Assembly: GCA_031549625.1 (NCBI GenBank)
Contig: JAVBPK010000014.1
Coordinates: 1-47,373 of the forward strand
Direction: 5' to 3'
DNA: 47,373 nt
Source of the DNA: Eubacteriales bacterium
Lineage (GTDB): Bacteria > Bacillota > Clostridia > Christensenellales > CAG-138
The notes under the pieces are model-generated. The model saw only the letters and a program-made list of their open reading frames with translations. It made no database searches and had not been told where the DNA came from. Shown here piece after piece: positions 26,862 to 47,373 of the stretch. The translations under genes and the position numbers were made by a program. Each line of letters opens with the position of its first letter. The first letter of the stretch is position 1.

Positions 26862-26890
26862 AAAAAGGGATGCCGCTGTCGCGGCATCCC
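26862..26890 (-). terminator. Terminator for the DUF975-like gene; target of MITE copy 1
   Basis: GGGATGCCGC-TGTC-GCGGCATCCC 10-bp stem with AAAAA on its left (TTTTT on the minus strand). Confidence 0.7.
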
Positions 26891-26983
26891 AAACTGTCAA
26901 AAAAGGTTCTTTACAGAAAGCTTTCAATCCGTGGGCAAGGACGACATGTGCGTCCGCAGCCCACACCTTGGGCATTTTGCCGC
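26890..26983. mobile_element. MITE-like element copy 1 (right part deleted)
   Basis: CAAACTGTCAAAAAAGGTTC...GGCATTTTGCCGC, highly similar to copies 2 and 3; runs into a degenerate duplicate of the target hairpin (26978-26997). Confidence 0.85.
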
Positions 26984-27017
26984 TGGCGCGGCAGCCCCAT
27001 ATGGATAGGAAAGTGTG

Positions 27018-27647
27018 TTACTGGTTTTGTGGCTCAGCCGCTTGGTTGGGTTGAGAAACGGGCTGCATAATGCGTCCGGTCAAGTTCATATAGAACGCGG
27101 CTTCCGCTGTGGCATAGTAGGGCATGATCCAAAGCAGGAGTATGCCAAACGTCAGGGAGGAGAGCATGAACCAGCCGATAAAGCTTAAATGCAGGCAGAA
27201 CAGGCGGCCTTTGTGCCCATCCATCATTTGTTTGGAGCGGTCCATGGCCTCCCGAATGCCCATAGTGGGGTATTCGGCCATGAGGTACGGGGCCATGGCA
27301 TAGCGGTATGCTGCAATGATGCCGGGCACCCAAAGCAGCAGCGACCAAAGAAATATGAACAATCCCATGAACAGGTATAGGCCGCAGGCCTTTAAGAAAA
27401 TTTCGAATTTATCAAACAGCGAGGCAAACAAGGGGCGCTCGCCTAAAACAAGGCGGCAGAAAAATGTGCACAGGCCCAGTTCAAAAGCGCCGACAAGCAG
27501 CACCGAACCAATCGAGCCAAGAAAAGGAATGAAGGCGCAAGCGGTAAGAATGGCGGAAGCGACGAGACAAACCGCGAGCGGGACACCCCAGAAACCACGA
27601 AGGCGGTCGCGCGCATAGGCGCGAAAGTCGCGAGCGAATGGATACAT
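27018..27647 (-). CDS. DUF975-family membrane protein
   Basis: FLWSLLLWVPGIIAAYRYAM, SKQMMDGHKGRLF.LHLSFIGW, WIMPY motifs; AAGGA RBS before ATG 27647. Confidence 0.85.
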   Translation of the reverse strand: MYPFARDFRAYARDRLRGFWGVPLAVCLVASAILTACAFIPFLGSIGSVLLVGAFELGLCTFFCRLVLGERPLFASLFDKFEIFLKACGLYLFMGLFIFLWSLLLWVPGIIAAYRYAMAPYLMAEYPTMGIREAMDRSKQMMDGHKGRLFCLHLSFIGWFMLSSLTFGILLLWIMPYYATAEAAFYMNLTGRIMQPVSQPNQAAEPQNQ

Positions 27648-29391: not shown

Positions 29392-30090
29392 CTACAGTGC
29401 CGCCGTTACAGCGGAATATAGCAGCAGCAGCGTCATCACGATATCAAACGGCAGCCGGTAGGTGGCGTAAATGCGCTTGATGGCATTGCCAAAGCTTGCC
29501 CAGGTAAGGGTGCATAGTATCATGATAAACAATACGATCACGGTCCAAAAGAATATCGGGCCCACATTTGTGGAATACGGAATGATATATACGGAATACA
29601 GAGTAAGCCCCATGAGCCAGCTTTTGATATTCATAACCTGCAACAAGATGCCGCCGGAAAATTTAGTGGTGATTCCCTGTGTGGGCAAAGCATCGTTGGC
29701 GGGGACGGGCGTGTCGGTATTGCCAACGTCAGTACTGCCAACGTCGGCTTGGCCGTCGGCAGGCACGGCGGCGGCAGAATCGGCGGAGGCTTTGCGCTTT
29801 GCCAACAGGGATTTGATGTCCGGCCAAATAATATGCAAGGCCAAATATACAAGATAAGCCGCGCCAAACCATTTTAAATAGGGGACAAGCTGGGGCACGT
29901 AGGCGGCAAGGGTAAGGTCTAGGAGCCCGCAAAGCAACATCTTCACAAAGAAGCCGGCGCAGGTGCCAAAAAGATACCCTTTCGCGCCGCGGATACCATA
30001 GGTGGCCGAGCTGTAGAACGACATGAAATTGCTGGGTCCGGGCGTGATTCCCTGGATGCAGACGTAAGTGAGCAAACCGAACACGTTCAT
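29392..30090 (-). CDS. LysE/RhtB-family amino acid exporter (EamB-like)
   Basis: ITPGPSN, LKWFGAAYLVYLA, LQVMNIK; six TM segments; GAGG RBS. Confidence 0.85.
   Translation of the reverse strand: MNVFGLLTYVCIQGITPGPSNFMSFYSSATYGIRGAKGYLFGTCAGFFVKMLLCGLLDLTLAAYVPQLVPYLKWFGAAYLVYLALHIIWPDIKSLLAKRKASADSAAAVPADGQADVGSTDVGNTDTPVPANDALPTQGITTKFSGGILLQVMNIKSWLMGLTLYSVYIIPYSTNVGPIFFWTVIVLFIMILCTLTWASFGNAIKRIYATYRLPFDIVMTLLLLYSAVTAAL
29713..29747. repeat. In-frame 15-bp tandem repeat in the LysE loop
   Basis: GTCGGTATTGCCAAC / GTCAGTACTGCCAAC / GTCGG, encoding DVGST-DVGNT. Confidence 0.7.
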
Positions 30091-30206
30091 ACGATACCTC
30101 CGGCCAAAGGAATGGCCACATTTCTAATGATATAGTATAACACAGGAAAGAGGGCAGGGGAATGCCGGGACAAGAAAACAGGAGGTACTTTTTGAAAAGC
30201 AAAAAA

Positions 30207-30229
30207 ATGCCGCATGCAAAAGGCGGCAA
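30207..30229. repeat. Left target-site duplication of MITE copy 2 (the spoIIP terminator hairpin)
   Basis: ATGCCGCATGCAAAAGGCGGCAA, 22/23 identical to 30391-30413; A7 run at 30201-30207 is the U-tract on the minus strand. Confidence 0.85.
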
Positions 30230-30390
30230 CAGACTGTCAAAAAAGGTTCTTAAGAGGAAGCTTTCAATCCGTGCCAAGGACGATATGTGCGTTCGCAGCC
30301 CACACCTTGGGCATTTTGCCGCCCGCGAGCCCGAAGGGTGAGAGGTAAAATGCTGTAACCCGTCGAAAAACAGAGTTTTTCGACGGCCTG
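30230..30390. mobile_element. Complete 161-bp MITE-like element copy 2 (IS1182/IS5-like ends)
   Basis: Imperfect TIRs CAGACTGTCAAAAAA versus reverse-complemented right end CAGGCCGTCGAAAAA (12/15); 23-bp flanking direct repeat; non-coding; three copies in the window. Confidence 0.9.
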
Positions 30391-30413
30391 ATGCCGCCTG
30401 CAAAAGGCGGCAA
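30391..30413. repeat. Right target-site duplication of MITE copy 2
   Basis: ATGCCGCCTGCAAAAGGCGGCAA (8-bp stem TGCCGCCT/AGGCGGCA). Confidence 0.85.
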
Positions 30414-30435
30414 AAATATTCAAAAGTCGGAGAAG

Positions 30436-31458
30436 CTAGCTCAAAGGAGCCCAAAGCGTGGGAGGCGCGGTATTTGCGGGCGGCGAGGAAGGGGCGGCGC
30501 CTTGCGCGCTTTCCGCGATGGCGCGGGCAAGATAAGGAACGGCGTTCAGCACTTCGTCCATGGTATTGCTGTTGTCGCCCATCTCCACGAGCAGGCACTG
30601 GTTGGAAACATGCTGGTTATAGCGGCCGGTCTTAATGCGAATATTGCGCATCAAGTCTTCATGCACGGCGGCAAGCCGATTTGTGATATCGAGCGCCAGC
30701 GCGTAATTGCTTTCAAAGTCGGGCATTTCTTTATAGCCCGTGCCGGTAGCGCCTTCGCCGGTGCCGACGACAAACATCATGCGCGCTACTTTTTTGCCGT
30801 CCACCACCGTATACAGGTGTTGCTTACCGGCATCGCGGTGTACGTCGATAAACAGGGTGAGCGAAGGGTATTTCGCCTTGTATGCTTTCATGGTAGCTTC
30901 TGAGCGTGAATAAGCCGTGGAAAGCTTGGGCGGCTCATGGTCGGTGGTATCGTGCAATACATTAAAGCCATATTCTTCGCGCAGAAGTTTTGCAAGCTGC
31001 TCACCGACCGCCACGATGTTTTTGTCCTGTTCGTGCGTGCGCCAGTCGCCGCTGGGTTCGTAGCGATAGCCGTCGGTTTGCTCGTAGGCTTCGGTGGCAT
31101 GCGTGTGGTAAATCAATATGCGCGGCTCGGGCCCGCCCAGGTTCGTGGTAGCGGGGGCGCGGGGCGTAAGTACTTCGATGCGCATATCTTCGCTGACGCC
31201 TTCGTCCACGTCCACGCGTAATATGGTCAGAGGCAAAACGGCCTCCGGCGTTGCCGGTTCAGGTATGGCGATGGTGGCGGGTAGGGCGAAAAGCAAAGCC
31301 CGCCGCCCGGCAGAGCCCTCCGAAAGCAACGCAAGCGCCGTGATGCACAAAACGAGTATGGCAATGCTGCAAATACGAATAGTGCTTTCAGACACTGGCT
31401 TTCGGCCGTGCTTTTGCTTTTTCTTATGTTTCTTTTGCTTTGTCCACATCCTGTCCAT
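30436..31458 (-). CDS. spoIIP: Stage II sporulation protein P (autolysin)
   Basis: ILIYHTHATEAY, IDVHRD, GRYNQH, LVEMG; N-terminal TM; near gpr; true start may be 31449. Confidence 0.92.
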   Translation of the reverse strand: MDRMWTKQKKHKKKQKHGRKPVSESTIRICSIAILVLCITALALLSEGSAGRRALLFALPATIAIPEPATPEAVLPLTILRVDVDEGVSEDMRIEVLTPRAPATTNLGGPEPRILIYHTHATEAYEQTDGYRYEPSGDWRTHEQDKNIVAVGEQLAKLLREEYGFNVLHDTTDHEPPKLSTAYSRSEATMKAYKAKYPSLTLFIDVHRDAGKQHLYTVVDGKKVARMMFVVGTGEGATGTGYKEMPDFESNYALALDITNRLAAVHEDLMRNIRIKTGRYNQHVSNQCLLVEMGDNSNTMDEVLNAVPYLARAIAESAQGAAPSSPPANTAPPTLWAPLS

Positions 31459-47186: not shown

Positions 47187-47225
47187 AAAGAAAACAACAA
47201 CGCCCGCATTCGCGCGGGCGTTGTT
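47187..47225. terminator. Hairpin after the reductase gene; target of MITE copy 3
   Basis: AACAACGCCCGC-ATTCGC-GCGGGCGTTGTT 12-bp stem with an A-rich left flank. Confidence 0.65.
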
Positions 47226-47373
47226 CAGACTATCAAAAAAGGTTCGCAAGAAAAAGCTTTCAATCCGTGGGCAAGGACGACATGTGCGTCCGCAGCCCAC
47301 ACCTTGGGCATTTTGCCGCCCGCGAGCCCGGAGGGCGAGAGGTAAAATGCCGTAATCCCGTCGAAAAACAGAG
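47226..47373. mobile_element. MITE-like element copy 3 (cut by the window edge)
   Basis: CAGACTATCAAAAAAGGTTC...CCCGTCGAAAAACAGAG, colinear with copy 2. Confidence 0.88.

Follow-up and report, generated by a model that had tools for sequence, protein, structure and literature searches.

We found that a 161-bp, gene-less stretch of non-coding DNA behind spoIIP is likely to be a transposase-less MITE of an IS1182-family IS, moved in trans by the DDE transposase of that family and placed at hairpins that are picked by their shape rather than their sequence. The stretch of DNA in which it was read, 47,373 nucleotides in total, was analysed as a whole and will henceforth be referred to as the window. 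The case for this reading is made by the anatomy of the element, its copy number, hairpin-sized duplications at sites of unrelated sequence, a paralogous empty site and tips that match those of IS elements. An earlier note on this DNA had proposed a non-autonomous element with a habit known from the IS1182 family, which recognises hairpins by structure, duplicates the entire stem-loop and may be very abundant; that proposal was essentially right. New here are a six-hairpin interior that is kept by compensatory changes, a core of that interior which is found family-wide, and a bias in the orientation of the element relative to the neighbouring genes.

A non-coding element between two copies of one hairpin

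The extent of the element was read off the sequence (Table 1). Its right tip, when reverse-complemented, shares 12 of its 15 bases with the left tip, and the left terminal inverted repeat (TIR) additionally holds TTGACA on the minus strand, facing outward. In alignments the tips are preserved across 21 copies in the genome as well as in other genera, and a 32-nt probe taken from the left end gave no chance matches in 100 shuffles. No transposase is encoded inside: open reading frames that overlap the element in a mechanically produced list are merely 57–59 aa long, and indels are found between copies.

The element is directly adjoined on both sides by direct repeats (22/23 identical), each of which folds into the same hairpin. 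Measured in this way, the 161-bp length, the imperfect 15-bp TIRs, the 22/23 repeat and its exact abutment all agree with the earlier note. Read along the strand of spoIIP, the stop codon is followed by one hairpin copy, the element, the second hairpin copy and the T-run. The copy proximal to the gene is thus now followed by the element and by no T's, and of the two hairpins the one next to the T-run has the weaker folding energy (−9.9 vs. −16.1 kcal/mol). The earlier description of the repeat as the spoIIP terminator hairpin holds in part. The hairpin is present on both sides and the gene is SpoIIP by its Pfam match, but a simple terminator scan of positions 30100–30500 called no terminator, because the hairpin copy bearing the T-run has a 6-bp stem and a 9-nt loop.

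The window contains the element three times, always on the + strand, and every copy begins at the foot of a distinct GC-rich hairpin with A-rich DNA to its left, just as had been noted before.

Table 1. Features of the element, its target hairpins and its neighbourhood (positions in the window; a dot denotes a feature without strand).
Feature	Position	Strand	Description and basis
MITE	30230..30390	+	161 bp; sequence reading and BLAST copies
Left terminal inverted repeat	30230..30244	+	CAGACTGTCAAAAAA; sequence reading and copy alignment
Right terminal inverted repeat	30376..30390	+	TTTTTCGACGGCCTG; sequence reading
Hairpin with 7-nt loop	30278..30294	+	loop ACATGTG in most copies, ATATGTG in this copy; copy alignments
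Conserved core, helix H1	30310..30354	+	30310–30320 pairing with 30344–30354; covariation and core model
Terminal palindrome H3	30360..30386	+	inward-facing copy of the tip pairing with the right tip; sequence reading and alignment
Left hairpin copy	30207..30229	.	one mismatch, giving a 6-bp stem and 9-nt loop; folding energy −9.9 kcal/mol
Right hairpin copy, spoIIP-proximal	30391..30413	.	7-bp stem; folding energy −16.1 kcal/mol
T-tract of the spoIIP terminator (A-run on the + strand)	30200..30206	-	now after the distal hairpin copy only; sequence reading, 6/8 upstream bases
spoIIP, gene whose terminator was hit	30436..31458	-	PF07454, E 2.5e-62
LysE-type translocator, downstream neighbour of spoIIP	29392..30090	-	PF01810, E 9.4e-7
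Copy 1 of the element	26890..26983	+	3'-truncated after ~94 bp, right-hand repeat not seen; BLAST and sequence reading
Hairpin adjoining copy 1	26867..26889	.	AAAAA on its left; sequence reading
Copy 3 of the element	47226..47373	+	cut by the end of the window and contig; BLAST and sequence reading
Hairpin adjoining copy 3	47196..47225	.	sequence reading

Whole hairpins are duplicated at unrelated sites

The source genome is a 2.14-Mb draft in 143 contigs with 81% completeness. Across these 2.14 Mb, BLAST returned 53 matches to the element (E ≤ 1e-3), 23 of them near full length, while a covariance model of the conserved core (see below) returned 35 matches at E ≤ 1e-6; moreover, 20 of the 286 contig ends terminate in the element. 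Together with the lack of an interior transposase, these counts bear out the earlier view that the element is non-autonomous and abundant genome-wide.

The tally of target duplications covered those full copies, 21 in number, whose flanks extended for 45 bp or more on both sides. Direct repeats of 15–26 bp that touch both tips (identity from 15/17 to 25/25) were found in 15 of these 21 copies. The 15 duplicated sites are mutually unrelated in sequence, and each repeat is a whole stem-loop; the length of the duplication therefore tracks the hairpin and not a fixed stagger. As for the other six copies, two had decayed repeats (9/10), three were located between two different hairpins and one had a hairpin on one side only, meaning that at least one hairpin flank was present in all 21. 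It was the contention of the earlier note that structure rather than sequence is recognised, and the genome-wide tally sustains it. At one of the duplicated sites (G000:C3), the loop of the hairpin is inverted between the two copies (gtt vs. aac), from which it follows that template switching inside palindromes occurs in this genome.

Diverged relatives of the element in other genera likewise combine CAGnCTGTCAAAAA tips with hairpin duplications of 16–33 bp; by our own reading of the listing, about 13 of 29 such elements carry duplications in this size range, most of them hairpins. Elements and hairpins also occur in arrays, e.g., two elements with three hairpin copies (C94), or a MITE and an IS end that share one hairpin (C43).

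Evidence of presence and absence at the same kind of site came from the palindrome ATGCCCACATGTGGGCAT, which is part of another repeat family and occurs 28 times in the genome. The palindrome is unbroken at G000:C77:5505, and in the filled counterpart (G000:C87:101-294) it is present twice with the element between the two copies, the left flanks of both loci being identical at 100 of 100 positions. We read about half of the 28 listed occurrences as adjoining an element tip, and at this symmetric palindrome the element is found in both orientations. An empty allele was thus recovered in paralogous form. An orthologous one was not found: the spoIIP locus of a genome of the same genus (G001) has another terminator and another neighbour and is uninformative, and no joint skipping the element was seen in contigs of one DNA sequencing run. 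In sum, the attributes of a MITE that were seen are short length, the lack of a transposase, TIRs, target duplication, dispersed copies and paralogous presence and absence.

Candidate mobiliser

Two types of contig end connect the element to the IS1182 family. One is an IS end at G000:C103:28991, the first 16 bases of which are identical (16/16) to positions 30230–30245 of the window; it continues with a hairpin, TATAAT, a ribosome-binding site and an ATG, which is also the layout of an IS1182 element in a relative (L020). The other is an identical sequence of 108–141 bp starting CAGACTGTCAAAGAAC, shared by the ends of contigs C4, C5 and C43. Its opposite strand encodes YTAMNLKKLAMWK / YTAMNLKKLAMWKDK near the end of a peptide, followed by a stop codon. 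In a search of a 56-kb database, this peptide aligned with the very C-terminal ends of six IS1182-like genes of relatives, at best with an E of 8.9e-5 over 38 aa.

The IS1182-like transposase is visible in the source genome as these 38 C-terminal codons only. Neither PF05598 nor PF13751 had a match in the 81% complete assembly and a complete transposase of the IS1182 kind was not assembled, so that the partner IS is seen only as contig ends of 83–141 bp. One IS end (L001) had no match in 40 relatives, and exact words from the IS ends had none in JGI metagenome contigs. As regards a cognate transposase, then, matching tips and a C-terminus at contig ends were found and a full gene in the source genome was not.

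In the family as a whole, PF13751 is present in 31 of 121 genomes, and two genes from relatives exceed the cut-off of 270 of NF033551, the model for IS1182 family transposases (394.6 bits for L020 and 374.8 bits for L032), and also carry DUF772, DDE_Tnp_1_6 and DDE_Tnp_1. The corresponding IS1182 elements are about 1.57–1.6 kb long and have tips of the CAGnCTGTC.. type which resemble those of the MITE (CAGACTGTCAAAAAAG in the MITE, CAGCTTGTCGAGAAAG in L020, CAGGCTGTCGAAAA in L023 and CAGACTGCGCAAAAAG in L032). Hairpins adjoin the ends of L020, L023 and L024. Whole-hairpin duplication was absent from all three full-length IS1182 copies in relatives for which both flanks were available: the two hairpins that flank L023 differ from each other, as do those of L024, and L032 is bounded by a 4-bp repeat (TTAT). 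Repeats of 0–60 bp are reportedly listed for the IS1182 family in ISfinder. A comparison by eye of the presence of the IS1182 gene and of the core across genomes showed no enrichment. Taken together, the 16/16 tip identity, the IS1182-like C-terminus at the second type of contig end and the NF033551 elements of relatives support the link to IS1182 that the earlier note had drawn, and the mobilising enzyme is probably a transposase of this family.

A covarying interior shared across a bacterial family

To describe the interior, we aligned 17 full elements from 15 genomes with MAFFT and obtained a fold of six helices. Among these 17 elements, 27 of the 39 pairs had changed on both sides, with 94.7% of cells paired; the covariation score of 0.41 was reached by none of 500 shuffles, and slid controls stayed at 0.11 or below. 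For the core, a model-fitted alignment (i.e., one that leans towards the model) had changes on both sides in 26 of 27 pairs. Here, helix H1 surrounds an internal loop (GCCCGCGA/GAGA) together with a further hairpin, H2 (30329–30339, GAA loop). Several unpaired segments are conserved in the alignments, namely GCCGCCCG.GAG, CGAGAGG and the loop ACATGTG. Within the source genome, the copies had accumulated 0.048 substitutions per site in stems vs. 0.068 in loops, and 28 of 65 changed pairs were broken.

We then asked how widely the core (right-hand 89 nt) is distributed. With a covariance model at E ≤ 1e-3, 81 of the 151 genomes sampled from the family contained it, as did 33 of the 50 genera, often in many copies. 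An order-wide search at E ≤ 1e-6 had hits in 4 of 121 genomes; leaving aside the source genome, these fell in two of four genomes of the same family and one of four genomes of one other family, with none in the 112 genomes of the remaining families. A scan of species-representative genomes for exact motifs gave at least 120 stretches, and all those listed came, judging by their titles, from Clostridia/Bacillota MAGs of rumen and gut, many of them labelled Christensenellales or Christensenellaceae. In line with the earlier suggestion that the element is uncatalogued, Rfam had no match at gathering thresholds anywhere in the window; around two copies, the best sub-threshold scores (21.9 bits with a gathering threshold of 88, and 22.7 bits with one of 82) belonged to unrelated families and were at chance level. 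The core model (R1) found nothing better than E 0.77 in 20 IS1182-type transposase loci and 3 IS-end fragments.

Strand, orientation and expression

In the source genome, the element is oriented with respect to genes. The right-hand gene could be called for 19 copies, and in 18 of them it lies on the opposite strand and converges on the element, its stop codon facing the right end; by an ORF-length heuristic, such genes end 27–96 nt from the right tip. Of the 15 duplicated sites, 8 have an A-run (at least 6 of 8 bases) on their left, and only 2 have a T-run (at least 5 of 8) on their right. In other genera there was no orientation bias relative to genes (right-hand gene on the minus strand in 16 cases and on the plus strand in 15; ORF heuristic).

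Pair types provide a second view of strand. Counts of G-U vs. A-C pairs, made on a structure derived on the + strand and on sequences that are related, were 30 to 6 in the non-terminal helices, 4 to 4 in the terminal palindrome and 31 to 12 within the source genome, and by our own count the excess drops to about 13 to 6 once pairs at helix ends are left out. This excess favours folding of the + strand. Since 18 of the 19 right-hand genes are on the opposite strand, read-through from them would yield the complement of the strand that G-U pairs favour. Folding energy does not separate the strands (z of −5.1 and −6.0), and no promoter-like site was found on either.

Contigs from the public reads of a single study, which comprised one run of DNA and two of RNA, gave an element-to-flank depth of about 100x in RNA contigs and about 85x in DNA contigs. 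The excess in RNA contigs is no sign of expression, because the DNA contigs show a similar ratio. No contig of the two RNA runs spans both spoIIP and the element.

Proposed mechanism and alternative explanations

For an IS1182-type MITE, the target would be an inverted repeat rich in G and C, in most cases a terminator stem-loop of the intrinsic type, with shape as the deciding property. We infer that such a palindrome extrudes as a cruciform and thereby brings the two stem feet side by side, so that two transposon 3' ends could be joined to them, one per strand. Gap repair would then copy the entire stem-loop, and the duplication would therefore be as long as the hairpin (15–26 bp here and up to 33 bp in relatives). 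The host terminator would be split in the process, the gene-adjacent copy losing the T-tract and the distal copy keeping it. With the T-tract at the distal copy only, transcripts should cross the element and stop some 185 nt later, placing the element in the 3' UTR. Termination, which the earlier note took to stay intact, may be kept after insertion; at the spoIIP locus it would depend on the weaker hairpin copy. Each duplicated hairpin would also be a new target, which would explain the arrays of alternating hairpins and elements.

Explanations of the covarying interior diverge in whether selection acts on RNA. A role as a mobile structured RNA gene foremost, with selection at the RNA level on the interior (e.g., because it stabilises 3' UTRs, is processed into a small RNA or binds a protein), would add to the MITE reading and be compatible with it, given that insertion at a terminator supplies host transcription and a terminator. 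Pairs changed on both sides (27/39 with 0/500 shuffles, and 26/27 in the core), the conservation of unpaired GCCGCCCG.GAG and CGAGAGG, a core present in 81 of 151 genomes and not found in 20 IS1182-type transposase loci, and the preference for G-U over A-C in non-terminal helices all argue for such a gene. We nevertheless consider it rather doubtful. It comes with no promoter-like site and no Rfam family, both strands fold equally well, the strand that G-U pairs favour is, for 18 copies out of 19, antisense to the gene next to it, and the G-U excess itself, counted on the strand on which the structure was derived, shrinks when helix-end pairs are dropped. The excess of element over flank is alike in RNA and DNA contigs, the difference between stems and loops is mild and 28 of 65 changed pairs are broken. 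By a somewhat different account, the fold would have no RNA role and would exist at the level of DNA, either because the transposition machinery requires a compact, cruciform-prone donor or through template-switch ("quasipalindrome") correction of inverted repeats. Template switching within palindromes could imitate compensation without any selection on RNA, and the loop inversion described above is a signature of it. The equal folding of both strands and the lack of orientation bias in other genera (16 vs. 15) fit this account too, as does the terminal palindrome of two tip copies, which covaries at 12 of 12 pairs, though transposase binding is the likely constraint there. Set against it, a distance of about 25 nt, with a conserved internal loop, separates the two arms of H1, an arrangement to which simple hairpin correction is ill suited. 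The sequences of unpaired loops are also kept from genus to genus, and a strand-symmetric process on DNA would not be expected to give more G-U than A-C pairs. We regard a DNA-level origin of the fold as quite possible, if somewhat short of probable. More specific, and in our judgement unlikely, is the idea that the IS1182-type MITE carries as its cargo an undescribed structured RNA of about 130–160 nt with six hairpins, spread in one uncultured family of gut and rumen Clostridia; in such an RNA, a helix would be broken by the conserved internal loop GCCCG.GA / GAGA, with the potential for tandem G-A pairs.

Other classes of element also associate with palindromes or terminators, among them REP/REPIN with RAYT, IS200/IS605-type PATE, IS110/IS1111-type elements and group IIC introns, and the element described here is hairpin-rich. 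To our knowledge, none of these classes has terminal inverted repeats or a target duplication, and both are present together in 15 of the 21 full copies. The element matches no intron or other RNA family, its tips equal IS tips, and the IS ends encode an IS1182-like C-terminus. We therefore dropped REP/RAYT, IS200/IS605, IS110 and a group IIC intron remnant as candidates because tips and duplications are present, and consider an origin from any such class very improbable.

Should the IS1182-type MITE reading be correct, hairpin-sized duplications would mean that a DDE transposase can read the shape of DNA, most simply that of an extruded cruciform, instead of a sequence. The set of elements would then constitute natural and abundant substrates of structure-guided integration. 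Annotation would be affected as well, through split terminators and longer 3' UTRs, and assemblies are broken by the element (20/286 contig ends). If an RNA cargo were real, each copy would come under host transcription with a ready-made 3' end. The cargo would then be a mobile RNA parasitic on terminators, which might lend stability to 3' UTRs, serve as a binding site for a protein or be a source of small RNAs. If the fold itself proves to be that of an RNA, this RNA family, absent from catalogues, would bring along its own vehicle of spread and would be present in half of the genomes sampled from a gut and rumen family that has received little study. Worth pursuing are the orientation bias and, above all for its spread over half of a family of bacteria, the covarying six-hairpin interior.

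Comparison with known systems

Group IIC introns home just past terminator stem-loops, as stated in the passage cited (PMC1702495). In contrast to the element, they are retroelements equipped with a ribozyme and with reverse transcriptase, and they lack both inverted-repeat tips and target duplications; no intron model matches the element. Closer in size and appearance are the pneumococcal BOX, RUP and SPRITE repeats and the QMITEs of Coxiella, which the relevant sections of a 2024 review of prokaryotic MITEs describe as small intergenic, hairpin-rich repeats that are co-transcribed and in some cases yield small RNAs (PMC10969869). The element resembles them in being small, intergenic, hairpin-rich and multi-copy; it differs in its hairpin duplication, as those repeats have short sequence targets or no defined duplication. 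The terms "IS1182" and "hairpin" are absent from the main text of the same review. In the literature searched, we found no description of an element of this kind and no paper linking Christensenell* with "miniature inverted-repeat".

Turning to the IS1182 family at large, the statement that "some members target palindromic sequences" is credited to Siguier et al. 2015 in two papers, in the parts cited here (PMC5678879, PMC4923244). The IS1182 elements of relatives share with the MITE both the CAGnCTGTC..-type tips and the hairpins adjoining the ends, and differ from it in that duplications typical of the family are short: 4 bp in L032 and, according to the passage cited, 4 bp in ISPse1 (PMC3281130).

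The nearest parallels are IS1272 and TnSha1, members of the IS1182 family in staphylococci. As described in the cited parts of the same two papers, they target inverted repeats or terminator hairpins without a sequence consensus, and their insertions start at the stem base and lie close behind genes (PMC5678879, PMC4923244). The family of the presumed mobiliser, the hairpin target, the insertion at the stem base and the position downstream of genes are thus common to both systems. The earlier note had it that some IS1182 elements insert at the foot of stem-loops and duplicate them; the first half of this statement stands, while IS1272 and TnSha1 are described, in those parts, as deleting the stem-loop wholly or partly and leaving no duplication (PMC5678879, PMC4923244). 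Duplication of a whole stem-loop appears there only as a hypothetical "pathway b" in the legend of Fig. 13 of Wan et al. 2017 (PMC5678879). On the strength of these parts of the literature, hairpin targeting by the IS1182 family is published and duplication as its outcome is poorly documented. The element behind spoIIP differs from IS1272 and TnSha1 in being non-autonomous, in its length of 161 bp and in duplicating its target hairpin (15 of 21 full copies), which suggests that the outcome of hairpin targeting can be duplication as well as the deletion published for IS1272.

Repeated insertion at duplicated hairpins

Hairpins that have already been duplicated by insertion serve as targets anew, as is seen in two arrays of the draft genome to which the window belongs (G000), one of them built from the MITE (the 161-bp non-coding element) only and the other from a MITE together with an end of the inferred IS1182-family partner insertion sequence (IS). 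A second multi-copy repeat family of this genome, repeat B, occurs at the two places tabulated and at 26 others. Within it, an 18-24-bp palindrome (ATGCCCACATGTGGGCAT) is followed by GGGAATGGGATTCC.AAGGGATGTATCCC and, farther along, by GGAGGC.GAGCCTCC; this palindrome is an insertion hot spot for both the MITE and the IS.

Coordinates of arrays, variant copies and other repeats (C, contig of G000; L, excised locus; G001, a genome of the same genus)
Feature	Location	Description
MITE array	L014:1-299 (C94)	2 MITEs and 3 copies of one hairpin
MITE/IS array	L006 (C43:9823-10161)	MITE and IS end, back to back, with one hairpin in common
Repeat B	C77:5405-5620; C87:1-394	
Inverted loop	L037 (C3:20716-20967)	gtt vs aac
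Tips-only mini-elements	C81:6298-6329; C47:28-61	32-34 bp
MITE copy 1	window 26890-26983	right-hand hairpin copy absent (window 26984-27060)
MITE copy at spoIIP	window 30230-30390	right tip towards the spoIIP stop codon
Contig-end repeat group	C3, C41, C138	
Contig-end repeat group	C46, C82, C88, C115	
Contig-end repeat group	C30, C52, C126	
Full IS1182-family element	L032:400-2004 (G001)	tips 15/18 (CAGACTGCGCAAAAAG)

Orientation and variant copies

The right tip of the MITE points towards the stop codon of a converging gene in 18 of the 19 callable G000 copies, a bias that could stem from target polarity, replication direction or selection; the same bias was looked for in other genera and none was seen. 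At one locus (L037) the hairpins on either side of the MITE, duplicates of each other, have identical stems but loops inverted relative to one another, which suggests a template switch or a flip within the palindrome, during or after insertion.

Several copies are shortened. Five of the 21 full copies aligned (C28, C32, C55, C109 and C137) have in common a 7-8-bp deletion (alignment columns 137-143) by which the terminal palindrome has lost its inner arm, and they form a MITE subfamily without the tip hairpin. Copy 1 ends after ~94 bp, its 3' part having been lost by a deletion that possibly also took adjoining sequence. The mini-elements reduced to the tips, each flanked by two non-identical hairpins, may have arisen by deletion or be left over from excision.

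Other repeats and an IS1182-family relative

Comparison of contig ends showed that the G000 assembly is broken by at least three further unassembled repeats, whose outward-reading ends have in common TGAACTGAACCC... (two kinds) or GGTAGATTACAA... and which are probably other insertion sequences. Separately, a promoter-like leader is common to ends of contigs C35 and C36.

The full IS1182-family element of G001 does not sit at a hairpin, and because it is flanked by a 4-bp duplication (TTAT), the IS1182 family would show short as well as hairpin-sized duplications.
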